Shown here in pieces: positions 1,813 through 29,702 of a stretch of 64,000 bases of DNA. Position 1 is the first letter of the stretch; each line of letters opens with the position of its first letter. Location: NCBI GenBank assembly GCA_051881315.1, contig JBJEPQ010000019.1, positions 16,570 through 80,569 of the forward strand. Direction: 5' to 3'. Below the pieces are notes generated by a model, which made no database searches, was not told the origin of the DNA, and was given only the letters and a program-made list of their open reading frames with translations. Both the position numbers and the translations under genes were made by a program. Source of the DNA: Acutalibacteraceae bacterium. GTDB taxonomy: Bacteria > Bacillota > Clostridia > Oscillospirales > Acutalibacteraceae.

Positions 1813-1860
1813 ATTTGGTAGCAAAAATTGCTATATATTAAAAATTTGGAGGAAGAACAC

Positions 1861-3108
1861 ATGAAAAAGATTCTCGCAATTCTCATGGCTATTGCTATGG
1901 TCTTTTCTTTCGCTGCTTGCGGCACAAAGAAAGACGGCGGCGACACCGAGAAGAAACTCAAGGTAGGATTTATTTTCCTGCACGATGAGAACTCAACCTA
2001 TGACAACAACTTCCTTACTGGTGCTGAAGAAGCATGTAAGAAGCTTGGTGTCGAGATGATCACAAAGAAGAACATTCCTGAGCAGAACGCTTGCTACGAT
2101 GCAGCTGCCGAGCTTGTTGACAGCGGATGCAGCATCATCTTCGCAGACAGCTTCGGTCATGAGGATTTCATGATAAAGGCTGCTAAGGACTTCACAGACG
2201 TTCAGTTCTGCCACGCAACCGGTACAAAGGCTCACACAGAGAACCTTCCCAACTTCCATAACGCTTTCGCTTCAATCTACGAGGGCCGCTATCTTGCAGG
2301 CGTTGCCGCAGGTCTCAAGCTCAACGAGATGATCGCAGCCGGCAAGTTCAAGGCTGAGGAAGCAAAGATGGGTTATGTCGGCGCATTCACATATGCAGAG
2401 GTTATCTCAGGTTACACCGCTTTCTACCTTGGTGCAAAGTCAGTTTGCCCGACCGTTACAATGGATGTTTCGTTCACCGGTTCATGGTATGACGAGACTC
2501 TTGAGAAGGAAGCTGCAAACACCCTCATTCAGAAGGGCTGTAAGCTCATCAGCCAGCACGCTGACTCAATGGGCGCTCCGACAGCTTGTGAGACAGCAGG
2601 TATTCCGAACGTTTCCTACAACGGAAGCACCGTTTCACAGTGCCCGAACACCTTCATCGTTTCTTCCAGAATCAACTGGGAGCCGTACTTCGAGTACATG
2701 ATCAAGTGCGTTCAGGACGGCAAGGCTATCGACACAGACTGGACAGGCAATCTCGGAACAGGTTCAGTTGTTCTTACCGAAGTAAACGGCAAGGCTGCTG
2801 CCGCAAACACTCAGGCTGAGCTTGATAAGGTTAAGGCTCAGTTCGACGCAGGCACACTTCATGTATTTGATGTGAACAATTTCACAGTTACTGTTGACGC
2901 TGAAAAGAAGCTTAACGTCAACGCTAAGGTTGATGCTAACGGTCACCTCACAAACTATATGGCAGACGTTGATACCGACGCTAACTACACCGCCGATACA
3001 GAGGTTGTTAAGGACGGTTACTTCCACGAGTCCGAATTCCGTTCAGCTCCGTATTTCGATGTACAGATCGACGGTATTACTCTTCTTAATTTTGACTACG
3101 GTGACTAA
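1861..3108 (+). CDS. BMP-family (Med/PnrA/NupN-like) nucleoside-binding lipoprotein of an ABC importer
   Basis: Signal peptide with lipobox MKKILAILMAIAMVFSFAAC-G. BMP-family body (KVGFIFLHDENSTYD, GYVGAFTYAEVISG). Start placed at the ATG at 1861. Confidence 0.88.
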   Translation: MKKILAILMAIAMVFSFAACGTKKDGGDTEKKLKVGFIFLHDENSTYDNNFLTGAEEACKKLGVEMITKKNIPEQNACYDAAAELVDSGCSIIFADSFGHEDFMIKAAKDFTDVQFCHATGTKAHTENLPNFHNAFASIYEGRYLAGVAAGLKLNEMIAAGKFKAEEAKMGYVGAFTYAEVISGYTAFYLGAKSVCPTVTMDVSFTGSWYDETLEKEAANTLIQKGCKLISQHADSMGAPTACETAGIPNVSYNGSTVSQCPNTFIVSSRINWEPYFEYMIKCVQDGKAIDTDWTGNLGTGSVVLTEVNGKAAAANTQAELDKVKAQFDAGTLHVFDVNNFTVTVDAEKKLNVNAKVDANGHLTNYMADVDTDANYTADTEVVKDGYFHESEFRSAPYFDVQIDGITLLNFDYGD

Positions 3109-18310: not shown

Positions 18311-19765
18311 TTACGCAAAGATGAACAGCAACGCCGAGGAAAGGACAATACAGAAAAGATAGTGCAGTTTGACGGAAACACTGCTTTCAAGACACTCGAA
18401 AAATGCGGTTGTTCCGCCGGCTTCGGGGTGTTCGGAAAGGTATTTCGGAAGTGCTTTTTTTGCTCTGATGACGCAGAGAAATACCGTTTCAAGGAAATAG
18501 GACAGGCAGTACATTATAAAGGTCGATTTATATCCGTAGTTTATACCCGTGACAACAGGCAGTACGCTCAGAATGACCGTCAAAGCTATGCAGATACCTG
18601 TTGCAATTCCCGAATGTTTGTATTTTTCCTGCGGTAATGAAACAAAGCAGAACTCCTCAACTCCCGCCCAAAGCAGAAGTGAGAACGAGGCGAAAATTGC
18701 GGCTTGTTTCGCTCCGAGCAGGCAGAGACACAGTACGCTGTACGAAAACAGAGGTCTGCGGCAAAGGGTGACAAGACGGCTGAATTTTTCGCTCGGATTT
18801 TTAATGCAATGGTGCAGAGCGTCAAGCACAATCAATGCAATCCACACAGCGGAGAGGACGGCGGACAGGTCAAACCGATCTGAATTTTCCGAAAGGGGAG
18901 ACCAAAGCCCTCCGTTAAATTCTATAACACGGTAATAGGAGAAAAGAATGCTTCGGCTTGAAAAGAAGCCGATCAGTATTCCGAGACTGCCGAGTGCGCC
19001 GTAGGAAAACTCCATGATCTTCCAGTTGTCGATTTTTCCTCTTTCCTGAAATTTTCCGAAGAAATACTTGCCGTTCCGTCTCTGAGGAAAAAGGGTATAT
19101 GCGTTGAGAAAGTTGGAAATAAGCCAGCCGACGCTTCCGCTGACCGTTCCGCAGAAAATCAGCTTCAATGAAAAGAAATCGTGACGCAGGATCATAAACC
19201 CGATCATCGTCAGCAGTATTCCCAAAAGTCCGCCCCATTCCTCCTGACTTGTATCGGAAAAATAATAACGCGGAAATATCTTTTTGTCGGGATCAAGCGG
19301 CTTGTTGAAAATACGCACTCCGAGATACCTCATAATCACGGCGATAACAAACATGAGCGGAATGTCTGCCGCTTTGTAATAGCAGCCCGTTGCCGCAGTA
19401 TAGCTCATTCCGATAAATCCGCCGGCGATTCCGAACCACGCCGCTCCCTTTATTCCGAGACCGAGGTTGTGCTTTTTGACATCACGGCGATCTATATATT
19501 TCTCTCCCCAATAAAGCTTCGCCATTGTCTGAGCATACGGCTCTGTTCCGCCCATAAACATTGCGGCGGCACCGACAGCGGCAAAGACGAAGAAATTTTC
19601 TTTTATTATCTCACTGCCCGAAAAAACGGCAAGGCAGAGACCGAGCACCGCACCCGGAAGCATTGCGCCCTCCTCGCCGCCGATGAGGTCACCCCTCATT
19701 CCCCATGCGTAGCTCACAGCCGTCAAGGTGACGGCAAAAGCGATGATAACCGTGAAAGCAGACAT
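18311..19765 (-). CDS. uncharacterised polytopic membrane protein (about 12 hydrophobic segments)
   Basis: 484-aa ORF, hydrophobic throughout (for example FVFAAVGAAAMFMGG, AAWFGIAGGFIGMSY, WGGLLGILLTMIGFMIL). I do not recognise a family. It appears monocistronic. Confidence 0.7.
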   Translation of the reverse strand: MSAFTVIIAFAVTLTAVSYAWGMRGDLIGGEEGAMLPGAVLGLCLAVFSGSEIIKENFFVFAAVGAAAMFMGGTEPYAQTMAKLYWGEKYIDRRDVKKHNLGLGIKGAAWFGIAGGFIGMSYTAATGCYYKAADIPLMFVIAVIMRYLGVRIFNKPLDPDKKIFPRYYFSDTSQEEWGGLLGILLTMIGFMILRHDFFSLKLIFCGTVSGSVGWLISNFLNAYTLFPQRRNGKYFFGKFQERGKIDNWKIMEFSYGALGSLGILIGFFSSRSILFSYYRVIEFNGGLWSPLSENSDRFDLSAVLSAVWIALIVLDALHHCIKNPSEKFSRLVTLCRRPLFSYSVLCLCLLGAKQAAIFASFSLLLWAGVEEFCFVSLPQEKYKHSGIATGICIALTVILSVLPVVTGINYGYKSTFIMYCLSYFLETVFLCVIRAKKALPKYLSEHPEAGGTTAFFECLESSVSVKLHYLFCIVLSSALLFIFA

Positions 19766-19854
19766 AAAATCGCCACCTCAATTTTTCATATAATCATTAT
19801 AACAGCACAGATTTGACAGCACAAGAAAAATCTGCGAAAAATCAAAATTTTCTA

Positions 19855-19883
19855 TTGACAAACTTTAAAATAGGCTTTATAAT
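19855..19883 (+). promoter_or_regulatory. consensus sigma-A promoter of the aromatic amino acid operon leader
   Basis: TTGACA (19855..19860), 17-nt spacer, TATAAT (19878..19883). Confidence 0.65.
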
Positions 19884-19915
19884 ATAGAAAATTTTTTAGG
19901 TGGGAGGAAGCTTCG

Positions 19916-19999
19916 ATGTTAAACAAAAAAATATACAATCGATTTTATTACTTTTATTACCATCAATGCGGCCTTTCTTCCTTTAAAAAACTCGGCTGA
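19916..19999 (+). CDS. 27-codon leader peptide MLNKKIYNRFYYFYYHQCGLSSFKKLG (candidate attenuation leader)
   Basis: The ATG lies 8 nt after the SD GGGAGG (19902..19907). Codons 10-15 are TTT TAT TAC TTT TAT TAC (F Y Y F Y Y), and there is a further Tyr at codon 7. TGA stop at 19997. Not in the ORF track because it is too short. Confidence 0.55.
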   Translation: MLNKKIYNRFYYFYYHQCGLSSFKKLG

Positions 20000-20044
20000 C
20001 CTGATGGCTTTTTCGCCGTTGCCGAAAAATAAAGTGTAGAGACA

Positions 20045-20086
20045 CCGCATAGAAAATTCGTAAGAATGAACTATGCGGGTTTTTTA
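20045..20086 (+). terminator. intrinsic terminator (attenuator) between the leader peptide and pheA
   Basis: ccgcatag (20045..20052) pairs with ctatgcgg (20071..20078). Inner stem attc-gtaa-gaat. Followed by GTTTTTT. The pheA start is 31 nt downstream. Confidence 0.75.
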
Positions 20087-20116
20087 ATGCAAATTTCTGA
20101 AAACGAGGGATATTCA

Positions 20117-21220
20117 ATGAACGATCTGCAAAACGCAAGAAGAACGATCGAAAAGATTGACGCCGAGATGGCGGAGCTTTTTGAAAAGAGAATGAAAGCG
20201 GCGGAAACTGTCGCTGAATTTAAAAAGGAAAACGCATTGCCCATAGAGGATAAAAAGCGTGAGGCCGAATTGACAGCGAAAAACTGCGAGTTTGTTTCAT
20301 TTGAATACCGTCCGTATTACGAAAGTTTTATCGAAAATGTTATGGACGTTTCCAAAAAGTATCAGAAGCGTCTTCTCGAGGGTATGAGAATTGCATACAG
20401 CGGAGTGGAGGGTGCATTTGCCCACATTGCCGCAATGAGGATCTTCAAATGCGGCGAAGCGGTGTCCTGCCCCGATTTTGACAGCGCATACAAGGCGGTC
20501 GAGGACGGAGAGTGCGACTGTGCCGTTCTGCCGATAGAGAACAGCTACGCCGGTGACGTTGACCGTGTGCTTGACCTTGCTTTCCACGGCAAGCTTTCCG
20601 TTTCGGGTATCTACGATATGCCCCTCGGTCAGAGCTTGCTTGCAAAGCCGGGAACGAATATTGAAGATATCACGGAGGTCAGAAGCCATCCGCAGGCGCT
20701 TTCCCAATGTATGCCTTATCTCAGGGAGCACGGCTGGAAGCTGACTCAGGCAGTCAATACCGCAGTTGCGGCGAAGTCCGTTGCGGAGGGCGAAAGAAAC
20801 GACATCGCCGTCGTAGCCTCCAAGGATGCGGCTGAGCTTTACGGATTGAAGATTTTGCAGGAGGATATTAACGAAAATAAGAAGAACACAACGAGATTTG
20901 CGGTGTTCACAAGGTCTGAATGTAAGGTAACTCCAAAGGACGAGCATTTCCTGATTATGTTCACGACCAAGAATGAACCCGGCTCCCTCGGCGGTGCGAT
21001 CGCCGTTATCGGCGAATACAGGTTTAATCTGAGAAGCCTGAAAAGTCGTCCGACGGGTAATGCGAACTGGGAATACTATTTCTATGCCGAGGGCGAGGGC
21101 AATATCGACTCCCTTGACGGCAGAAAGATGATACACGACTTAAAGAAGCTTTGTGAGAATGTTAAAATTCTCGGCAGCTTTTCGGACGAGAAGATCCTTG
21201 ACGAAAGGAGAGCTATATAA
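20117..21220 (+). CDS. pheA: bifunctional chorismate mutase / prephenate dehydratase (P-protein)
   Basis: The N-terminal AroQ-type chorismate mutase region is RRTIEKIDAEMAELFEKRMKAAETVAEFK. The prephenate dehydratase body is RIAYSGVEGAFAHIAA and NTTRFAVF. The C-terminal ACT region is GSLGGAIAVIGEYRFNLRSLKSRP. ATG at 20117 after GAGGGA. Confidence 0.9.
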   Translation: MNDLQNARRTIEKIDAEMAELFEKRMKAAETVAEFKKENALPIEDKKREAELTAKNCEFVSFEYRPYYESFIENVMDVSKKYQKRLLEGMRIAYSGVEGAFAHIAAMRIFKCGEAVSCPDFDSAYKAVEDGECDCAVLPIENSYAGDVDRVLDLAFHGKLSVSGIYDMPLGQSLLAKPGTNIEDITEVRSHPQALSQCMPYLREHGWKLTQAVNTAVAAKSVAEGERNDIAVVASKDAAELYGLKILQEDINENKKNTTRFAVFTRSECKVTPKDEHFLIMFTTKNEPGSLGGAIAVIGEYRFNLRSLKSRPTGNANWEYYFYAEGEGNIDSLDGRKMIHDLKKLCENVKILGSFSDEKILDERRAI

Positions 21221-22242
21221 TGAGCGTTTTGCATATGGAGCTTGGAGCAAACAGCTATGACATAACCGTTGAACGCGGTGCGCTGAACAGAGCAGGCGAG
21301 CTGTTGAAGCTTGACAGAAAGGTGCTTATAGTGACCGATGACGGCGTACCGAAGGAATATGCCGAAAAAATTGCCTCCTTTTGCGCCGAGCCGTACACGG
21401 TCACTCTCCCGATGGGCGAGCAGAACAAGTGTATGAAAACATATTCCGATCTGCTTGAAGTGATGGTGAAAAACGAATTTGACCGCAATGACTGCGTTGT
21501 AGCCGTCGGAGGCGGAGTGATGGGCGACCTTGCAGGCTTTGTCGCTTCCACCTATATGAGGGGCGTTGACTTCTACAATGTGCCGACAACCCTCCTTTCT
21601 CAGATTGATTCTTCGATCGGCGGCAAGGTTGCCGTGGATTTTGCGGGATATAAAAATCTTGTCGGTGCGTTTTATCAGCCGAAAGCCGTGCTGATAGATC
21701 CGGATGTTCTCTCAACCCTTTCATCAAGGCAGTTTGCCTGCGGAATGGCGGAGGCTGTGAAGATGTTTGCAACCTTTAATGCGGAGATGTTTGAAGCGGT
21801 CGAGAAAAATCCCGACGAGGATATTGATAAGATAATAATTGAAGCACTCAAAATCAAAAGAGATGTTGTCGAAAAGGACGAAAAGGAAAAAGGACTTCGC
21901 AAGGTGCTGAACTTCGGTCACACGGTAGGTCACGCCATAGAGAGCATCGAGGAAAACAGCGATTATCCGCTGTTCCACGGCGAATGTGTGGGCATCGGAA
22001 TGCTCTGCCTGAGCAGTCCCGAGGTCGCAAGACGGCTCAGACACATACTTCACAGAATGGATATTCCGACCTCCTGGAGAGGCGGCGAGGAAGAGCTGAA
22101 AGCGGCTATGCTCCACGACAAGAAAGCCAAGGGCGACAGGATAACGGTCATAACGGTGGACACAATCGGAACCTTTAAAGAGGAAAAGCTGACGGTCGAT
22201 GAGATCGTAAAACGATGTGAGGAGGTGCTTGTGCTGTCATGA
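21220..22242 (+). CDS. aroB: 3-dehydroquinate synthase
   Basis: 340 aa: VAVGGGVMGDLAGFVASTYMRGVDFYNVPTTLLSQIDSSIGGKVAVD, NFGHTVGHAIE. Confidence 0.92.
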   Translation: MSVLHMELGANSYDITVERGALNRAGELLKLDRKVLIVTDDGVPKEYAEKIASFCAEPYTVTLPMGEQNKCMKTYSDLLEVMVKNEFDRNDCVVAVGGGVMGDLAGFVASTYMRGVDFYNVPTTLLSQIDSSIGGKVAVDFAGYKNLVGAFYQPKAVLIDPDVLSTLSSRQFACGMAEAVKMFATFNAEMFEAVEKNPDEDIDKIIIEALKIKRDVVEKDEKEKGLRKVLNFGHTVGHAIESIEENSDYPLFHGECVGIGMLCLSSPEVARRLRHILHRMDIPTSWRGGEEELKAAMLHDKKAKGDRITVITVDTIGTFKEEKLTVDEIVKRCEEVLVLS

Positions 22243-23330
22243 AGAATACATTCGGAAACGTGCTTACGGTAACTCTGTTCGGCGAGAGCCACGGCGAAGC
22301 TATCGGAGCGGTGATAGACGGCATAGCTCCCGGAGTGAAGATAGACAGGGATTATATTGATACAAAAATGGCTCTGCGCAGACCGAGCGGAAAAATTTCG
22401 ACCGCTCGAAGTGAAAAGGACGAGATCGTTTTTGAAAGCGGAGTTTATGAGGGACACACAACCGGTACGCCGATCTGTATGGTTATCAAAAATGCCGACA
22501 CTCACAGCTCGGATTATTCCTCCCTTGCAGGCAAGGCGAGACCGGGACACGCCGATTTTCCTGCGTTTTGCAAGTATCACGGCTTTGAGGACGCAAGGGG
22601 CGGCGGTCATTTCAGCGGCAGAATTACTGCGGCTCTCGTTGCCGCAGGCGCAATAGTTCAAAGTGCGCTGAAAGAAAAAGGAATTGTCATCGGTACACAC
22701 ATCAGCCGCCTTGCAGGTATCAGCGACAGCAAAATGAACCCGACGGAAGATGTTGAAAGACTTGAAAATTTGGAGTTTCCGCTTGTTGACGGAAGCCTTG
22801 AGGAAAAGATGAAAGCGGCAATTATGCAGGCGAGAACAGAGGGCGACAGCGTCGGAGGAATCCTTGAAACGGCTGTTGTCGGTATGCCTGCCGGGGTGGG
22901 CGAGCCGTGGTTCGACACGGTTGAAAGCCTGCTTTCCCATGCGCTTTTCTCCGTTCCGGCGGTCAAGGGAGTTGAGTTCGGAGACGGCTTTGCCCTTGCC
23001 GATATGAGGGGAAGCGAGTCCAATGACGCTTACCGTGTTGATGAAAGCGGAAGGATAATCACCGAAACCAACAGCAACGGCGGAATAGGCGGAGGCATAA
23101 CGAACGGTCAGCCGATAGTTTTCCGCTGTGCCGTCAAGCCGACTCCGTCGATAGTCAAGAAGCAGGACACGGTCGATTTTGTCAATGTATGCAATACGGA
23201 AATTGCCATAAAGGGCAGGCACGATCCCTGCATAGTTCACCGTGCGAGAGCGGTTGTTGACGCCGTAACTGCGCTTACTCTGGCGGATATGCTCAGTTTG
23301 AGATACGGCACGGACTGGCTTGCGAGGTAA
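22239..23330 (+). CDS. aroC: chorismate synthase
   Basis: MKNTFGNVLTVTLFGESHGEAIGAVIDGIAPG, RPGHADF, GGGHFSGRITA, GRHDPCIV. Confidence 0.95.
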   Translation: MKNTFGNVLTVTLFGESHGEAIGAVIDGIAPGVKIDRDYIDTKMALRRPSGKISTARSEKDEIVFESGVYEGHTTGTPICMVIKNADTHSSDYSSLAGKARPGHADFPAFCKYHGFEDARGGGHFSGRITAALVAAGAIVQSALKEKGIVIGTHISRLAGISDSKMNPTEDVERLENLEFPLVDGSLEEKMKAAIMQARTEGDSVGGILETAVVGMPAGVGEPWFDTVESLLSHALFSVPAVKGVEFGDGFALADMRGSESNDAYRVDESGRIITETNSNGGIGGGITNGQPIVFRCAVKPTPSIVKKQDTVDFVNVCNTEIAIKGRHDPCIVHRARAVVDAVTALTLADMLSLRYGTDWLAR

Positions 23331-23334
23331 CGGT

Positions 23335-24594
23335 ATGGAGTACGGATGTATCGGTAAAAAACTCGGTCACAGCTTTTCGGCTGTCATTCACGCAAAGCTC
23401 GGCGATTACGATTATCGGCTTGTTGAGCTGACGGAGGACGAGCTGACCGAATTTATGAATAAAAAGGATTTTAAAGGCATCAACGTTACGATACCTTATA
23501 AGGAGACGGTAATTCCGTTCCTCGATCATATAGATGTTTCGGCACGTCGGATAGGAGCGGTAAACACGATCGTCAATGAAAACGGCGTACTGACAGGCTA
23601 CAACACCGATTTTTACGGAATGACGCAGTTACTGAAAAAGGGCGGCATTGATGTTGACGGAAAGAGCGTTTACATTCTCGGAACGGGCGGCACGTCAAAA
23701 ACGGCAAGAGCAGTTGCGGCGTCACTCGGAGCAAAGGAGATTTACGTTGTTTCGAGAACTCCGAAAAACGGTGAGATCTCTTATGATGATATGTATGCGA
23801 ACGCAGAGAACGTCGAGGTTATCATCAACACCACGCCTGTCGGAATGTTCCCCAAGCCCGATGCTTCGGCGGTCGAGCCGTCACAATTTCCCAATCTCAG
23901 CGGAGCGGCGGACGCAGTTTACAATCCGCTGACGACTGAATTTATTCGGAAAGCCCAAAATTGCAAAGCGAACGCCGTAAACGGTCTTTATATGCTTGTC
24001 GCTCAGGCGGCAAGGGCGGCGGAGCTGTTTTTTAACGACAAAACCATGACTTCAAAAACCGATGAAGTTTTTGCCGAAATATATAAAGAAAAGCTCAATG
24101 TTGTGCTTATCGGTATGCCCGGAAGCGGTAAGACCACGATCGGTAAGCTCGTTGCAAAAAGCCTCGGCAGAGAGTTTTACGACACAGACGAGGTGTTTGT
24201 GGCAGAGGAGCAAACGACAATTTCCGATTACTTTGCATCGCATACCGAGAAGGATTTCCGTGACAGGGAAAGCGAGATTGTCGCAAGTCTCGGAGCGAAG
24301 AACTCCCTTGTCATCGCCACGGGCGGAGGTGCAGTCCTCAGAGAGGAGAATGTAAGACATCTCAAACAAAACGGAGTGATCTTCTTCCTTGACCGTGATG
24401 TTGAAAACATTGTTCCGACCTCGGACAGACCTCTCGGCAGCAGCAGGGAAGCGATAGAAAAAAGATACCGTGAACGCTATCCGATCTATTGCTCGGCGGC
24501 GGATATAAAGCTTGACTCCAATTCCTGCGTTGAGACGGTCGCCGCAAACCTTGCCGAAGAATTTATCAGCTTTTGCCGAAAGGAGCAGTTATGA
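23335..24594 (+). CDS. aroE: fused shikimate dehydrogenase (N-terminal) / shikimate kinase (C-terminal)
   Basis: The N-terminal part has GINVTIPYKETVIPFLD and GAVNTIV (AroE). The C-terminal part has LIGMPGSGKTTIGKLVAKSLGREFYDTDEV and ATGGGAV (AroK). It is one continuous ORF with no internal stop. ATG at 23335 after GAGG. Confidence 0.85.
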   Translation: MEYGCIGKKLGHSFSAVIHAKLGDYDYRLVELTEDELTEFMNKKDFKGINVTIPYKETVIPFLDHIDVSARRIGAVNTIVNENGVLTGYNTDFYGMTQLLKKGGIDVDGKSVYILGTGGTSKTARAVAASLGAKEIYVVSRTPKNGEISYDDMYANAENVEVIINTTPVGMFPKPDASAVEPSQFPNLSGAADAVYNPLTTEFIRKAQNCKANAVNGLYMLVAQAARAAELFFNDKTMTSKTDEVFAEIYKEKLNVVLIGMPGSGKTTIGKLVAKSLGREFYDTDEVFVAEEQTTISDYFASHTEKDFRDRESEIVASLGAKNSLVIATGGGAVLREENVRHLKQNGVIFFLDRDVENIVPTSDRPLGSSREAIEKRYRERYPIYCSAADIKLDSNSCVETVAANLAEEFISFCRKEQL

Positions 24595-25013
24595 AGATAT
24601 TAGTTATTAACGGACCGAATTTGAATATGCTCGGCATCAGAGAGCCTGATATCTACGGCAGAGAAACATATTCGGATCTGCTGGAGAAGATAAAACGTCA
24701 CGCTGACAAAAAGGAAATCGAGGTTGAGTTTTTCCAGTCCAATCATGAGGGCAGCATCGTAGATAAAATTCAGGAGGCATACGGGAAAATCGACGGTATT
24801 GTCTTAAATCCCGGCGCCTACACCCACACGAGCGTTGCCATTCCCGACGCATTGAAGGCTGTCGGAATACCGACCGTTGAGGTGCACATTTCCGATGTTG
24901 ACACCCGTGAGGAATTTCGTCAGATCAGCTATGTCCGACCGTGCTGTGTTGCGTGCGTCAAGGGGCATGGGACGGACGGCTACTGCGAAGCGATAGATAT
25001 TCTGATCGGCTGA
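24591..25013 (+). CDS. aroQ: type II 3-dehydroquinate dehydratase
   Basis: [23 protein letters not shown]...[16 protein letters not shown]...[13 protein letters not shown]...VEVHISD. The ATG overlaps the preceding stop (ATGA). Confidence 0.93.
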   Translation: [140 protein letters not shown]

Positions 25014-25019
25014 AATTGT

Positions 25020-25054
25020 CCACAGCACATTTTTCGCTCGGGGCAGTAACCTTT
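25020..25054. repeat. 35-nt copy of a dispersed intergenic element (also at 50134..50168)
   Basis: ccacagcacatttttcgctcggggcagtaaccttt versus ccacggcacatttttcgttcggggcagtaccttt at 50135..50168 (two substitutions and one indel). It lies in the 70-nt aroQ-aroA spacer. Confidence 0.7.
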
Positions 25055-25083
25055 AAAAGACTCAACCAAAAGGATTGGTAAGC

Positions 25084-26295
25084 ATGAATGTAACAATAAA
25101 AACGGGGACGGCGTCGGGTGAGGTGAAAATACCCTCGTCCAAGAGCGTTGCCCACCGTTTGCTGATAAATGCCGCCTTGACCGACGGCAAAACCGTACTC
25201 GAAGATCTTTCTTTGAACGAGGACATCAGCGCAACGATTGACTGCCTGAGGGTTCTCGGAGCAAGGATCGAATTGCCGCAGGCGGGTATATGCGAGGTCA
25301 CGGGAGCTTCGGAAAAGACTGTTGACGGGGTGCGCAGACTTTATTGCAGAGAGAGCGGAAGCACGCTTAGGTTTATGCTTCCTCTTTGTCTCGACGGAGT
25401 GAAAACGGAGCTTTACGGCTCGCCGAGGCTCATCGAAAGACCTCACTCCGTTTACCGTGAAATCTGCGAAAAGAACGGCTTTCTCTGGCAGTCTGACGGT
25501 GAGAAAATAACCGTACAGGGAAAACTGACGGCAGGAATATATGAAATCCCCGGTAACATCAGCAGTCAGTTTATTACCGGACTTATGCTGAGCTTGCCGA
25601 CGCTTGAAAAGGACAGCGTTATCAGGCTGACGACCGAGCCTGAAAGCCTTTCCTATATTGAAATGACGGTCAATTCCCTCGCCGAGTTCGGAATAAAAAT
25701 CGAGAAACGCTCCGACCGTGAGTGGTATATCGTGGGCGGACAGACGAGAAAAACTCCGAACAAAATCAGCGTTGAAGCCGACGAATCGGGAGCGGCTTTC
25801 TTTGCGGCTCTGAACTTTATCGGCGGCGATGTAAAGCTTAATAATCTCAACGAAAACAGCCGTCAGGGCGACAGGGTTTGGAGATCGCTTTTTCCCTTGC
25901 TTTCGGACGGAAAACCCGAAATCTCAATCAAGGACTGTCCCGATCTCGGACCGATACTGATGTCGCTTGCCGCCTGTCTCAACGGTGCGGTGCTGACCGA
26001 CACGGCAAGACTTAGAATAAAGGAGAGCGACAGGGGAGAGGCGATGGCGCAGGAGCTTGCAAAATCGGGCGTTAAGGTCAAGGTGGACGAAAACCGTATA
26101 ACGGTCGATCCTGCGGATATTCATGCTCCCACGGAAGCTTTGGACGGTCATAACGACCACAGAATAGTGATGTCGCTGGCAGTCCTGCTGACAAAATACG
26201 GCGGAACAATAAAAGGAGCCGAAGCCGTGGCGAAAAGTATGCCGCAGTTTTTTGAAATGCTCAGGTCAATAGGTATAGATACAGAAGAAGGTTAA
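25084..26295 (+). CDS. aroA: 3-phosphoshikimate 1-carboxyvinyltransferase (EPSP synthase)
   Basis: IPSSKSVAHRLLINAAL, CRESGSTLRF, DHRIVMSLAV. Start placed at the ATG at 25084 (the ORF track gives a TTG at 25075). Confidence 0.92.
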   Translation: MNVTIKTGTASGEVKIPSSKSVAHRLLINAALTDGKTVLEDLSLNEDISATIDCLRVLGARIELPQAGICEVTGASEKTVDGVRRLYCRESGSTLRFMLPLCLDGVKTELYGSPRLIERPHSVYREICEKNGFLWQSDGEKITVQGKLTAGIYEIPGNISSQFITGLMLSLPTLEKDSVIRLTTEPESLSYIEMTVNSLAEFGIKIEKRSDREWYIVGGQTRKTPNKISVEADESGAAFFAALNFIGGDVKLNNLNENSRQGDRVWRSLFPLLSDGKPEISIKDCPDLGPILMSLAACLNGAVLTDTARLRIKESDRGEAMAQELAKSGVKVKVDENRITVDPADIHAPTEALDGHNDHRIVMSLAVLLTKYGGTIKGAEAVAKSMPQFFEMLRSIGIDTEEG

Positions 26296-26296
26296 T

Positions 26297-27172
26297 ATGA
26301 AAAGGATTGATTCAGACACAAAGGTGCTGATCGTAGGTCTCGGTCTTATCGGAGGAAGCTACGCAAAGGCATTGACAAAAAAAGGCTGTAAGGTCAGGGC
26401 GATAACCCGTAAAGACAGCGATATTGAATATTCCGTCAAAGAGGGATTTATCGAGGACGGTACAACGGCGGTGACAAAGGAATATCTCGCATGGGCGGAT
26501 ATTATCGTCTTTTCACTCTATCCGCACACGTTGCTCGAATGGCTGAAAAAATACGCAGGTCTTATTAAAAAAGGTACGGTTTGCACCGATGTTACGGGTG
26601 TTAAAAGCTGTATAGTTTATGACGCTCAGGCTCTTATGCCCGACGGAGTGGAGTTTATTGCCGCTCACCCGATGGCAGGCCGTGAAAGAAGCGGCGTCCG
26701 TCACAGCGACGATTCCGTTTTCAAAGGAGCAAACTATATTGTTGTTCCGACAGATAATAACACACCCGAAGCGGTCGAATACTGCAAACAGCTCGGAGAA
26801 GCGCTTGGCTTTTACCGTATCAGCGTGCTTGACCCCGAATCGCACGACAGGATGATAGCTTTCCTGTCTCAGCTTACCCACTGCATTGCCGTTTCGCTGA
26901 TGTGTACGAACGACACACCAGGCTTTGAGGCTTACACGGGTGACTCGTTCAGGGATCTTACAAGGATCGCAAAGATCAACGGAGAAATGTGGAGCGAGCT
27001 TTTTATCAGCAATAAGCAGTTCCTACTCGACGAGATGGATAATTTTATAAATCAGTTTACACTTCTGCGCGATATGCTTGAAAATGAAGATAAAGAGGGT
27101 ATGTGCAGAATGATGCAAATATCAACACAGCGCAGAGAAAAATTTGATAAACCCAAAGTAAAGGAAGGCTAA
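26297..27172 (+). CDS. tyrA: prephenate dehydrogenase
   Basis: Rossmann motif VGLGLIGGSYAKAL, then AAHPMAGRERSG and DRMIAFLSQLTH. Confidence 0.88.
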   Translation: MKRIDSDTKVLIVGLGLIGGSYAKALTKKGCKVRAITRKDSDIEYSVKEGFIEDGTTAVTKEYLAWADIIVFSLYPHTLLEWLKKYAGLIKKGTVCTDVTGVKSCIVYDAQALMPDGVEFIAAHPMAGRERSGVRHSDDSVFKGANYIVVPTDNNTPEAVEYCKQLGEALGFYRISVLDPESHDRMIAFLSQLTHCIAVSLMCTNDTPGFEAYTGDSFRDLTRIAKINGEMWSELFISNKQFLLDEMDNFINQFTLLRDMLENEDKEGMCRMMQISTQRREKFDKPKVKEG

Positions 27173-27175
27173 TCT

Positions 27176-28204
27176 ATGAACATGAATTTTTACCACAAGC
27201 TGCCGATACCCCAGGATGTAAAGGCGCACTACCCCGTAACAGACAGTATGAAAGCTGTCAAGGCAAAAAGAGACGCTGAAATCAAGGCGGTATTTGAAGG
27301 CAAGAGCGACAAGTTTCTCCTTATAATCGGTCCCTGCTCGGCGGACAGGAACGACTCCGTTCTCGACTATATCGGCAGACTGAAAAAAGTCAGCGAGCAG
27401 GTCGAGGACAAGATCATTATTATTCCGAGAATTTATACCAACAAGCCGAGAACTACAGGTGACGGCTACAAGGGAATGCTTCATCAGCCCGATCCCAATT
27501 CTCACCCCGATATGCTCAAGGGCATTGTCGCTATCCGTGAGCTTCATATGAGCGCACTCCGTGATTACGGTCTTTCTTCGGCGGATGAGATGCTTTATCC
27601 CGACAATCACAGATATCTTTCCGACATTCTTTCTTATGTTGCGGTCGGTGCAAGATCTGTTGAAAATCAACAGCACAGGCTGACAGCGAGCGGACTTGAT
27701 GTTCCCGTAGGACTTAAAAACCCGACAGGCGGCGATCTTTCCGTTATGATGAACGCCATCACAGCCGCCCAACACAGCCATACGTTTATTTACCGCGGCT
27801 GGGAGGTTGAAAGCTTCGGCAATCCGCTTTCCCATGCTATTCTCAGAGGTTTCCAGACAACGGACGGCGCAACGGTTTCAAACTATCACTATGAGGATCT
27901 TCTCAAGGTCAGCGAGCTTTATCAGAAAATGGGTCTTGAGAATCCCGCCGTTATCGTTGACACAAACCATGCAAACTCAGGCAAGAAGTACAGGGAACAG
28001 CCGAGAATTGCGCTCGATGTTATCCACAGCATGAGAGAAAACTCCGATATCAGAAAGCTCTGCAAAGGTCTTATGATCGAGAGCTACATTGAAGACGGAG
28101 CGCAGAAGACCGACGGATGCGTCTACGGACAGTCGATCACCGATCCCTGCCTCGGCTGGGAAAAGACCGAAAAGCTCATCTTCGATATTGCGGATAAATT
28201 ATAA
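27176..28204 (+). CDS. aroF: 3-deoxy-7-phosphoheptulonate (DAHP) synthase, class I (AroF/G/H-like)
   Basis: LLIIGPCSADRNDSV, RIYTNKPRTTGDGYKGMLHQPDP, GLKNPTGG, IVDTNHANSGK. Confidence 0.9.
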   Translation: MNMNFYHKLPIPQDVKAHYPVTDSMKAVKAKRDAEIKAVFEGKSDKFLLIIGPCSADRNDSVLDYIGRLKKVSEQVEDKIIIIPRIYTNKPRTTGDGYKGMLHQPDPNSHPDMLKGIVAIRELHMSALRDYGLSSADEMLYPDNHRYLSDILSYVAVGARSVENQQHRLTASGLDVPVGLKNPTGGDLSVMMNAITAAQHSHTFIYRGWEVESFGNPLSHAILRGFQTTDGATVSNYHYEDLLKVSELYQKMGLENPAVIVDTNHANSGKKYREQPRIALDVIHSMRENSDIRKLCKGLMIESYIEDGAQKTDGCVYGQSITDPCLGWEKTEKLIFDIADKL

Positions 28205-28214
28205 AAATTATTAC

Positions 28215-28250
28215 GGCTTTCGTTTGTTTTTCGGCAAATGAAAGCCTTTT
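28215..28250 (+). terminator. intrinsic terminator of the aromatic operon
   Basis: ggctttc..tttg / caaa..gaaagcc stem (28215..28246) followed by TTTT. Confidence 0.6.
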
Positions 28251-28268: not shown

Positions 28269-28296
28269 TTGACAATAATTTCAAATATGATATAAT
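28269..28296 (+). promoter_or_regulatory. sigma-A-type promoter
   Basis: TTGACA (28269..28274), 16-nt spacer, TGA-TATAAT (28291..28296, extended -10). Confidence 0.55.
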
Positions 28297-28334: not shown

Positions 28335-29702
28335 ATGTCGGATATTATTGTTGCCGGAGCAGGTCACGGCGGACTGGTTGCCGCATGGAAGCTGGCACAG
28401 CTCGGTCACAGAGTTACGGTTTATGAGCGTAATGCCGAAAAAAACCTCGGCTACGATCAAAAGGATCCCGTGGACGCCGCATATTTTGATTTTGCCGAGA
28501 TTGAATACCCCGAAAGCTGGAAAGCTCCGAACAATGTTATCACCCTTGTCCCGTTAGATAAAAATGTTGAGCCGTTTACGCTCCCTCAGGAAAAGGGTGC
28601 GTCAACCTTGATTGTTGAACGCAGGGAGCTTTTGGCTTTTCTGATTGATCTTTGCAAAAAAGCAGGGGTTAAGTTCGTTTTTAACTGCACAGTCCGTGAG
28701 CCTGTTATGCTCGGAAGCCGTGTCATCGGAATTATGACTGATCAGGGCATCAGACTTGCCGATCTTATTATCGACGCCTGCGGAATAGATTCTCCCGTGC
28801 GTACGGGACTTCCCGATTTTATGAACATTCAAAAGCATCTCGGAGTTTTTGACCGCCTGCATGTTTACCGAGCATATTACGAAAGAATTCCCGACAAGCC
28901 CGATCCGCCGCATCGATACAATGTCTATGTCAACCGCAACGGTACTGTCGGCTTTACATGGCTTATAACAGAGAGCGACTGCGTGGATGTTCTTGTTGCG
29001 AGATTTAATGACATTACCGAGGAGGACATTCGGGAGAATATTGATTTCCTCTGCGAGGGAAATGAGCATATGAGCCGCAAGCTTGTCAGGGGCGGAGAGA
29101 TTGTCGATATCCCTGTTCGTCAGCCCTTGGCGGTGTTTGTTGCCGACGGTTATGCCGCAGTGGGCGACAGCGCATGTATGACCGTCCCGATAAAGGGCTC
29201 CGGCATAGGCTATTCGATCAAAGCGGGAGTTCTTCTTGCCGAAGCGGTCAGGGAGGATACAGACGGACTGTTCAACTGCGATACGCTTTGGAAATATGAA
29301 CACAGCTTTTTCCGTGAAATAGGCTTCAGTGCCTGCACGGTCGCTGTCGAAAAAAATCTTCTCCCGTATCTGACGGCTAAAGAGGTCAGCGACTTTATAA
29401 ACAGCGGAATACTTACGGGCGAGGAGCTTGCCGAGCTGAGTGTTGATAAGATCGAATATCTCAGAAAGAATAATATAGTTTCGACCTTGAGAAACAAGCT
29501 GAAGCTGCTCAACGGTATGCCTGAGCTGAGAAATAAGGCACTCAGGTTTGTGACATGGTTTGGCAGGGAAAAGCTTGTCGAGCCTTTGCTTCCTGCCGAA
29601 TACGACCGTGAAGCCGTGGCAAAGTGGGCGGAGCATTATAACGAATTTTTTGAGTCGATAAAGACCGACAAAATTCCCGGTGAGACCGAGGACGAAGAAT
29701 AA
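28335..29702 (+). CDS. FAD/NAD(P)-dependent oxidoreductase (geranylgeranyl-reductase-like family)
   Basis: N-terminal dinucleotide fold MSDIIVAGAGHGGLVAAWKLAQLGHRVTVYER and a later GDSACM motif. Substrate unknown. Confidence 0.7.
   Translation: MSDIIVAGAGHGGLVAAWKLAQLGHRVTVYERNAEKNLGYDQKDPVDAAYFDFAEIEYPESWKAPNNVITLVPLDKNVEPFTLPQEKGASTLIVERRELLAFLIDLCKKAGVKFVFNCTVREPVMLGSRVIGIMTDQGIRLADLIIDACGIDSPVRTGLPDFMNIQKHLGVFDRLHVYRAYYERIPDKPDPPHRYNVYVNRNGTVGFTWLITESDCVDVLVARFNDITEEDIRENIDFLCEGNEHMSRKLVRGGEIVDIPVRQPLAVFVADGYAAVGDSACMTVPIKGSGIGYSIKAGVLLAEAVREDTDGLFNCDTLWKYEHSFFREIGFSACTVAVEKNLLPYLTAKEVSDFINSGILTGEELAELSVDKIEYLRKNNIVSTLRNKLKLLNGMPELRNKALRFVTWFGREKLVEPLLPAEYDREAVAKWAEHYNEFFESIKTDKIPGETEDEE

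Follow-up and report, generated by a model that had tools for sequence, protein, structure and literature searches.

A candidate phenylalanine/tyrosine leader-peptide attenuator upstream of the pheA-aro-tyrA operon of an Acutalibacteraceae bacterium

Described attenuators and the Acutalibacteraceae leader

In transcription attenuators of the trpL and hisL type, to which the E. coli pheL-pheA system (Rfam family Phe_leader) belongs, a short open reading frame (ORF) rich in codons for the product of the operon is combined with a terminator and an antiterminator whose formation depends on the ribosome. The same components were found in contig JBJEPQ010000019.1 of an Acutalibacteraceae bacterium, within a window of 64,000 nucleotides (nt), which is the whole stretch of DNA that was analysed. 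Here, they precede pheA, the first of eight genes in an operon for aromatic amino acid biosynthesis. From the sequence and its comparison with relatives, we infer that this leader is a ribosome-mediated transcription attenuator, through which the availability of charged tRNA-Phe and tRNA-Tyr would determine how strongly the pheA-aro-tyrA operon is expressed. The probability of this reading is estimated at about 85 %. It is based on an ORF that has a ribosome-binding site and a start codon of its own, codons cognate to the operon products, a terminator, a predicted antiterminator, a geometry in which the position of the ribosome would matter, and conserved regulatory codons within a drifting peptide.

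Like pheL, the present leader would control a gene for a chorismate mutase-prephenate dehydratase (PMC3082878, PMC11802643). Nevertheless, no sequence or covariance-model similarity exists between them. While the regulatory codons of pheL are Phe only, those of the present family are mostly Tyr (one Phe to two to seven Tyr codons in general, two Phe to four Tyr codons in the window), and the cargo additionally covers the whole common pathway and tyrA. Furthermore, the ORF extends 12 codons past the run and stops inside a middle hairpin, the predicted antiterminator is composed of this hairpin and a closing helix, and the pairing partner in the off state would include the Shine-Dalgarno (SD) sequence of the leader itself. 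The Tyr-dominated run, the proposed control of a supraoperon from pheA to tyrA, the passage of the ORF through a switch segment into the middle hairpin and the composite antiterminator, together with an invariant CGA codon in front of the run, are the distinctive features of this leader.

A Gram-positive counterpart is the aroR leader of the aroF operon in Corynebacterium glutamicum, an attenuator with Phe-Tyr-Phe codons that precedes a shikimate-pathway operon and, as far as summarised in PMC11802643, responds to Phe limitation and not to Tyr limitation (Neshat et al. 2014). Compared by description, it belongs to a different phylum and controls a 3-deoxy-D-arabino-heptulosonate 7-phosphate (DAHP) synthase operon instead of a pheA-to-tyrA supraoperon. 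In Acholeplasma, a lineage allied to Firmicutes, the upstream ORF uORFC-13-1 was predicted in front of the shikimate-pathway gene aroF, with a ribosome-binding site, a start codon and Phe codons immediately before a terminator stem (PMC8632094). Again compared by description, it differs in having at least one Phe codon from a U-run and no Tyr run, as well as in taxon and downstream gene, and no match between it and the leader region was found in Rfam 15. Classical attenuators in Firmicutes, including Clostridia, have also been predicted for His leaders of the Bacillus cereus group, Peptostreptococcaceae and Erysipelotrichales (PMC9413887), which differ in amino acid, operon and bacterial family and are unrelated in sequence. 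Finally, Tyr and Phe T-boxes and the trp RNA-binding attenuation protein (TRAP) also choose between a terminator and an antiterminator in the 5' leader, depending on tRNA charging or the end product. In contrast to these, the present leader has no specifier loop, T-box sequence, Rfam match or (G/U)AG repeats, and sensing would occur via the translating ribosome. Earlier comparative work stressed T-boxes for tyrosine and aminoacyl-tRNA synthetase genes in Firmicutes (PMC1262725), and the sequence-only reading of this locus had regarded leader-peptide attenuation as unusual for the phylum. Unusual it is, but the predicted precedents (PMC9413887, PMC8632094) make it rare rather than unprecedented.

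No description of this leader family was found in the searchable literature, and the family is absent from Rfam, which is why the element goes unannotated. It is conceivable, albeit doubtful, that it represents the first clear family of Tyr-dominated leader-peptide attenuators, Arg(CGA)-Phe-Tyr(2-7), widespread in gut Oscillospirales-type Clostridia and controlling the entire aromatic supraoperon. Attenuation sensing tyrosine was long merely hypothesised, as for E. coli aroF-tyrA (Camakaris 1980, as cited in PMC2659441), and a family with two to seven Tyr codons offers a natural test case for it. In addition, the family offers a regulatory signal that can be tested for the aromatic amino acid biosynthesis of gut Clostridia that are abundant and poorly studied (Acutalibacteraceae, 'Ruminococcus sp. 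CAG').

The leader ORF and its regulatory codons

The elements of the leader were read from the letters of window positions 19500-20400, and all of them lie on the forward strand. Transcription is predicted to start at about 19890 from a sigma-70-type promoter at 19855-19883, which matches the consensus at 12 of 12 positions in a promoter scan (-35 box TTGACA at 19855-19860, spacer of 17 nt, -10 box TATAAT at 19878-19883). The ribosome-binding site and start codon of the leader ('region 1', 19899-19918) comprise the SD sequence GGGAGG at 19902-19907 and, after 8 nt, an ATG at 19916-19918. This ATG opens an ORF of 27 codons plus a TGA at 19997-19999 (MLNKKIYNRFYYFYYHQCGLSSFKKLG, 19916-19999), for which homologous ORFs exist in relatives. 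Its codons 10-15 (TTT TAT TAC TTT TAT TAC, 19943-19960) encode Phe-Tyr-Tyr-Phe-Tyr-Tyr and are immediately preceded by the CGA (Arg) codon at 19940-19942. A run of at least six Phe/Tyr codons occurs a single time in the six frames of the 64-kb window. When the whole window was shuffled 100 times with its dinucleotides preserved, such a run arose in 3 of the shuffles. Other leader-like short ORFs in the window were set aside by their coordinates, as they lie inside longer ORFs or on the reverse strand of the leader.

Downstream of the run, the switch segment ('region 2', CCAUCAAUGCGGCCUUUCUUCCUUUA, 19960-19985) was delimited by its conservation at the nucleotide level and its alternative pairings. 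It is followed by the middle hairpin (19992-20025, -12.9 kcal/mol by folding), whose 5' strand contains the stop codon of the leader, and by the predicted 3' strand of the antiterminator ('region 3', UAAAGUGUAGAGACACCGCAUAGA, 20030-20053, obtained by constrained folding), which overlaps the 5' arm of the terminator at 20045-20052. The intrinsic terminator at 20045-20085 (-15.1 kcal/mol by folding) consists of an 8-bp outer stem, ccgcatag (20045-20052) and ctatgcgg (20071-20078), followed by a G and six T (20080-20085); within its loop, ATTC and GAAT form an inner stem that is capped by a GTAA loop. A terminator is found at the same place in the related loci, apart from L103, which is discussed below. 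The distance between the leader stop codon and the terminator is 45 nt, and 31 nt separate the end of the T-run from pheA. The segment CAATGCGG at 19964-19971 equals the 3' arm of the terminator at 7 of 8 positions and thereby mimics it. Direct reading thus bore out the promoter, the SD sequence, the 27-codon ORF with its FYYFYY run, the terminator and the mimicry that the sequence-only reading had reported. Compared to its own shuffles, the fold of the leader is more stable (z = -3.1).

The first gene after the terminator, pheA, has a ribosome-binding site GAGGG at 20105-20109 and an ATG at 20117-20119 (20105-20119), and translation from 20117 fits the domains CM_2, PDT and ACT. In public gene calls, pheA begins at an ATG within the terminator loop (20066) or further upstream, which adds 17-49 spurious residues (P0001/P0002 with 384 amino acids (AA); a 416-AA group, e.g. 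P0062 at L051 3001-4251), whereas the correct start according to the SD sequence is 20117.

The operon extends over 20117-28246 on the forward strand, as delimited by Pfam, the ORF list and a terminator scan. According to Pfam, it encodes pheA (chorismate mutase, prephenate dehydratase and ACT domains), aroB, aroC, an aroE-aroK fusion, aroQ, aroA, tyrA and DAHP synthase, and the terminator scan placed its end at 28215-28246. Hence, the earlier expectation that the cargo comprises pheA, tyrA and the common pathway, and fits a Phe/Tyr leader, proved correct. The codons of the leader match this cargo, as it contains Phe and Tyr codons and no Trp codon, and the operon contains no trp genes. The aroE-aroK fusion combines a shikimate dehydrogenase (N-terminal domain) with a shikimate kinase in a single ORF of 424 AA (23320-24594, forward strand); it is common to most related loci, with separate genes in L050 and L053.

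For the analysis of conservation, one genome per species was scanned with the PheA protein, resulting in 25 Clostridia loci, 24 of them with upstream sequence, including Acutalibacteraceae and 'Ruminococcus sp. CAG:563 / CAG:488'. The leader ORF was present in all 24 loci with upstream sequence. In 13 loci with a PheA identity of 84-99 %, the same leader was found, mostly as MLNKKIYNRFYYYHHCGLSAFAKIG with FYYY replacing FYYFYY. Ten loci with a PheA identity of about 57 % have an aminotransferase gene before pheA; there, the leader precedes the aminotransferase gene, reads MLFNARFYYYISADRRNSVGKTVRG and variants, and has its own promoter, SD sequence and terminator. Another leader, MKKYFAFYYFINKDCLYAN, was found at the locus L015. 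Among contigs collected via PheA homologues of 58-67 % identity, the leader was present in 7 of 7, for example as MIVLTNRFYYYHHCGLSAYAELG, MMQMTSRFYYYHQGGLSVRCS, MAAFINRFYYRQSGLSENC and MKYMISRFYYYYHQSGLSVHCA, and among contigs around relatives of the L015 PheA, it was present in four of five. One of these four, FVKSYFRFYYYMNADCLYTCEA, has the CGATTTTATTACTAT core and forms a link between the subfamilies. When metagenomes were searched with the exact pattern of the RNA element after the run, 43 sites were obtained, and in all 38 sites with at least 600 nt downstream, a PheA homologue follows next. The leader is therefore conserved among genomes with a PheA identity down to 56 %. The homologous ORFs always precede pheA or aminotransferase-pheA, an SD sequence and an ATG are found at all related loci with the exception of L103, and TTGACAAA plus a -10 box are retained across all related loci.

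A third type of leader occurs at L015 (2844-2984), L099, L100 and L101. These leaders read MKKYF(A/V/T)FY(Y/S)F..., MAAIYFYYFMNADC..., and lack the CGA core; the Phe/Tyr-rich ORF is retained in them and the RNA sequence is quite different. Their likely antiterminator strand (UAAAACAG in L015) lies just past the stop codon, which is nearer to the classical layout. L102 is an intermediate between this third type and the second subfamily.

The pattern of variation separates the codons of the run from the remaining peptide. The core Arg(CGA)-Phe-Tyr-Tyr(-Tyr) is preserved across the subfamilies, while the N- and C-termini differ. Among 53 distinct leader cores, the N-terminal codons drift, and the run itself varies only by TAT/TAC synonyms and 3-nt insertions and deletions. 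As a result, the relatives range from FYY to FYYYYYYY, with two to seven Tyr codons. This pattern agrees with the earlier suggestion that a conserved short ORF with a Phe/Tyr run and drifting flanking codons should be found in relatives. Examples of the differing Tyr counts are L053 (FYY), L054/L059 (FYYYY) and L092 (2176-2220, FYYYYYYY), and the steps are always 3 nt. The TAT repeat itself is susceptible to slippage by 3 nt, whereas FYYFYY in the window species is a duplication of 6 nt. In each of 74 related loci with the core, CGATTTTATTAY was found exactly once, namely in the leader. The Arg codon before the run is CGA in all of these 74 loci, with no synonymous codon, and the base preceding it varies. 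The invariant CGA may be decoded slowly and thereby make the stall more sensitive, or it may reflect a constraint on the RNA. Directly after the run, the sequence is conserved including third codon positions; it reads CCATCAnnGCGGyCTTTCT in one of the subfamilies, while the other has CGGATCGCCGGAACTCTGTCGG. The switch segment hardly varies within either subfamily, and a stretch of about 45 nt is almost invariant in the second. Since third codon positions are invariant there, the RNA rather than the peptide appears to be under selection in this part.

Alternative structures and the proposed switch

When the full leader was folded at equilibrium, three hairpins recurred, both in the window and in each of the 20 related loci examined (10 per subfamily). 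The first pairs the SD/start region with the pyrimidine-rich segment past the Tyr codons, the second is the middle hairpin with the leader stop codon, which is found in both subfamilies, and the third is the terminator. The switch segment at 19960-19985 is complementary to the SD region, to the stop-codon region (19994-20007) and to the 5' arm of the terminator. The SD sequence of the leader may itself belong to the switch.

A stalled ribosome was modelled by masking 28 nt around the first Tyr codon and cutting the RNA before the 3' arm of the terminator. In this fold of the window, 19963-19985 pairs with 20030-20053 over 19 bp, closing around the middle hairpin, and the whole antiterminator structure reaches -30.3 kcal/mol compared to -15.1 kcal/mol for the terminator stem alone. 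The pairing of 19964-19971 with 20045-20052, which had been proposed by eye, is contained in it. Applied to 18 loci, this thermodynamic model predicted that, with the ribosome placed at the first Tyr codon, the 5' arm pairs with the switch segment in 14 loci if the 5' untranslated region was free and in all 18 if it was blocked. With a ribosome on the stop codon, the same pairing was predicted in only 3 of the 18 loci, both subfamilies being sampled. Of the ribosome positions suggested earlier for such folding, the aromatic run and the stop codon, the first Tyr codon gives the antiterminator and the stop codon mostly does not; the last Tyr codon is problematic for the reason given below.

The complementarity of the antiterminator strands is conserved in both subfamilies. 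In the alignment of the first, 81 % of the cells are paired compared to 38-62 % in slid controls, and in that of the second, 98 % compared to 17-46 %. For the SD pairing in the second subfamily, 86 % of the cells are paired compared to 39-73 % in slid controls, with no covariation. The subfamilies reach the same architecture by different sequences, with GCGGyCUUUCU pairing with GAAAG/AGAGA..CCGC in the first and CGGAUCGCCGG pairing with GCGAUCCG or CCGAGGUCCG in the second. Mean duplex energies are -14 kcal/mol within a family and -10 kcal/mol across families. At L055, the stem of the terminator is replaced (GGCUUGC...GCAAGUC), yet its 5' arm has retained complementarity to the switch segment, which is unchanged.

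The pairing of the switch segment with the stop-codon region joins CCAUCA (19960-19965) with UGAUGG (20002-20007) and CGGCC (19969-19973) with GGCUG (19994-19998), and it is the best fold of 19958-20009 alone (-14.6 kcal/mol). Here, 93 % of the cells are paired compared to 8-45 % in slid controls, and two compensatory changes were found, A-U to G-C in L053 and C-G to U-A in L050, a result equalled by 1 of 500 shuffles. The 5' end of this hairpin lies in the last Tyr codon, so that it would be opened by a stalled ribosome.

Based on these pairings, the following mechanism can be proposed. If Phe and Tyr are plentiful, the ribosome would translate the switch segment and reach the stop codon in the 5' strand of the middle hairpin. 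By covering or separating the segments, it would keep the switch segment from closing onto the 5' arm of the terminator. After its release, the SD region or 19994-20007 would recapture the switch segment, the terminator would form and transcription would end at 20085. If Phe or Tyr is scarce, a ribosome stalled on 19943-19957 would cover the start of the switch segment, leaving GCGGCCUUUCU exposed and the middle hairpin free to fold. The emerging 5' arm of the terminator could then zip onto 19963-19985 at the base of the middle hairpin, giving the antiterminator of -30 kcal/mol. With its partner occupied in this way, the 3' arm of the terminator would stay unpaired and the RNA polymerase would continue into pheA. 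Without translation, the pairing of the SD sequence with the switch segment together with the terminator would constitute an off state.

Several results weigh against this interpretation. The covariation of the antiterminator and of the SD pairing is not above that of shuffle controls. The structural support consists of complementarity that is conserved in a set of fairly close relatives. In shuffle tests per locus, the duplex of the switch segment and the terminator arm reached modest z values between +0.5 and -2.8, where the two weakest values come from loci in which the terminator arm was cut too short. Taken over both duplexes, including that of the SD sequence and the switch segment, the values range from +0.5 to -3.7; many are not significant, and these tests were dropped as too weak.

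Another limitation is that, at equilibrium, the terminator is favoured by 6-29 kcal/mol in every fold of the full leader. In a scan over transcript lengths, the antiterminator is transiently favoured both with and without a stalled ribosome, so the switch must be kinetic if it operates. The equilibrium length scan was also considered as evidence for the off state without translation, and this use was dropped because the scan cannot show that state. Moreover, a stall at the last Tyr codon would place the ribosome over GCGG / CAATGCGG, which leaves the earlier codons as the productive stall sites. As GCGGCCUUUCU lies just behind the trailing edge of a ribosome on the stop codon, the exclusion of the antiterminator in that situation would depend on loop size and steric effects.

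The coding evidence and the distribution of the leader are subject to limitations as well. In the region of the core, the remaining two frames contain no stop codon either, over 9-259 codons. For this reason, the assignment of the frame depends on the conserved SD sequence, the ATG and the meaning of the codons, and the openness of the ORF was dropped as coding evidence because it does not discriminate between the frames. Furthermore, both the leader ORF and the upstream terminator are absent from L103, the fifth of the contigs around relatives of the L015 PheA. This locus (positions 1050-1200 and 2360-2515) has an aminotransferase-pheA-aro operon with a spacer of 135 nt between the aminotransferase gene and pheA.

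The timing of transcription and translation is a further point. In Bacillus subtilis, transcription runs ahead of the ribosomes (Johnson et al. 2020, as cited in PMC7858274). If such uncoupling also holds here, a pause of the polymerase would be needed, and none was identified in the leader. A short distance between stop codon and terminator serves as a proxy for transcription outrunning ribosomes, according to the account of the same study in PMC7858274. In the window, the stem of the operon terminator begins 10 nt past the last stop codon (28204-28246); this is a single data point, relevant to the timing of a leader-peptide attenuator in this organism. Conversely, since such an attenuator needs a ribosome that keeps pace with the polymerase, the leader bears on how general the 'runaway' transcription described for B. 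subtilis in PMC7858274 is among Firmicutes. If functional, it would imply that, in a class of Firmicutes, ribosome and RNA polymerase are timed closely enough to permit classical attenuation, and it would counter the view that leaders sensing tRNAs or proteins have replaced classical attenuation in this phylum.

Competing explanations and the neighbourhood of the operon

The alternative that survives best, although improbable, is an RNA switch binding a ligand, a tRNA or a protein (riboswitch, T-box-like, TRAP- or PyrR-like), in which the ORF would be incidental and the nucleotides after the Tyr codons would form the binding site. Such mechanisms are common in Firmicutes (established knowledge; PMC1262725), and the conservation of the nucleotides after the run, including third codon positions and the nearly invariant stretch of about 45 nt in the second subfamily, would be expected from a binding site. 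The weak covariation of the proposed helices and the open alternative frames point in the same direction. However, no known regulator of this kind was detected. At the gathering score, Rfam 15 matched the purine riboswitch described below elsewhere in the window and nothing at the leader, and at E <= 10, the region 19700-20250 gave no T-box, Phe_leader or other amino acid leader. Matches to isrI, CRISPR-DR21 and rteR in this region (E 2-6) were rejected as chance-level. No leader family was matched at the gathering score in 13 related loci either, which answers the earlier question of whether the region belongs to a T-box or another known Rfam leader. Within the leader, neither a GGTGGnACC-like T-box core motif nor a specifier loop or T-box sequence was found. 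For TRAP, where 9-11 (G/U)AG repeats spaced 2-3 nt apart were the criterion, the leader contains six scattered (G/U)AG triplets with a longest properly spaced chain of one. An incidental ORF is also difficult to reconcile with a properly spaced SD sequence and ATG kept in all lineages, and with a codon run, CGA-TTT-TAT-TA(Y), that is the sole part conserved in all subfamilies and varies by TAT/TAC exchanges and 3-nt insertions and deletions. The amino acids of this run match the products of the operon, and leaders of the L015 type keep a Phe/Tyr-rich ORF despite a quite different RNA.

Very improbable is the explanation that a small gene in its own right, consisting of promoter, ORF and terminator, encodes a small protein or a trans-acting RNA, with read-through into pheA as constitutive leakage. 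A strong promoter and a clean terminator do delimit a transcript of about 195 nt, and a precedent for a trans-acting attenuator RNA and leader peptide exists with rnTrpL/peTrpL in Sinorhizobium (PMC7298713). On the other hand, no further promoter-like site is present in the 31 nt between the terminator and pheA, and the element was always located immediately in front of the aro operon or of its variant with aminotransferase-pheA. The N- and C-terminal parts of the peptide drift or are constrained at the RNA level, and the alternative pairing with the terminator arm is conserved. A role in trans may exist on top of attenuation.

It is hardly credible that the leader encodes a nascent arrest peptide with the core RFYYYH, which would sense free Phe or Tyr in the exit tunnel instead of charged tRNA. 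TnaC senses tryptophan in the exit tunnel of the ribosome. A similar role here would agree with the conservation of the Arg-Phe-Tyr-Tyr core and the following His in the first subfamily, and it might account for the invariance of CGA. Nevertheless, the sign would be wrong, since arrest induced by the ligand would turn a biosynthetic operon on when its products are abundant. In addition, the run is followed by different residues in the subfamilies (HHCGLS, ISADRR, FINKDC), and a Tyr run of two to seven codons is unlike a precise arrest motif. Chance can be regarded as effectively refuted: TTT, TAT and TAC are frequent in AT-rich DNA, other frames are open, and an AT-rich intergenic region might by itself contain such an ORF and a terminator, but the rarity of the run in shuffles and in the window, and the conservation of the element across genomes with PheA merely 56 % identical, speak against it. 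The ribosome-mediated attenuator thus remains the preferred reading of the leader.

The neighbourhood of the operon contains some further features. On the reverse strand, an ORF of 484 AA (18311-19765) is divergent from the leader promoter and has no Pfam or NCBIfam match. Directly past the operon terminator, a second perfect consensus promoter lies at 28269-28296 on the forward strand (TTGACA, 16 nt, TATAAT, with a TG extension), preceding an FAD-dependent oxidoreductase of the geranylgeranyl reductase family with 455 AA (28335-29702). The purine riboswitch aptamer (RF00167) is located at 1071-1169 on the forward strand, with 49.8 bits compared to a gathering score of 37, upstream of the ORFs at 1222-1812 and 1828-3108.

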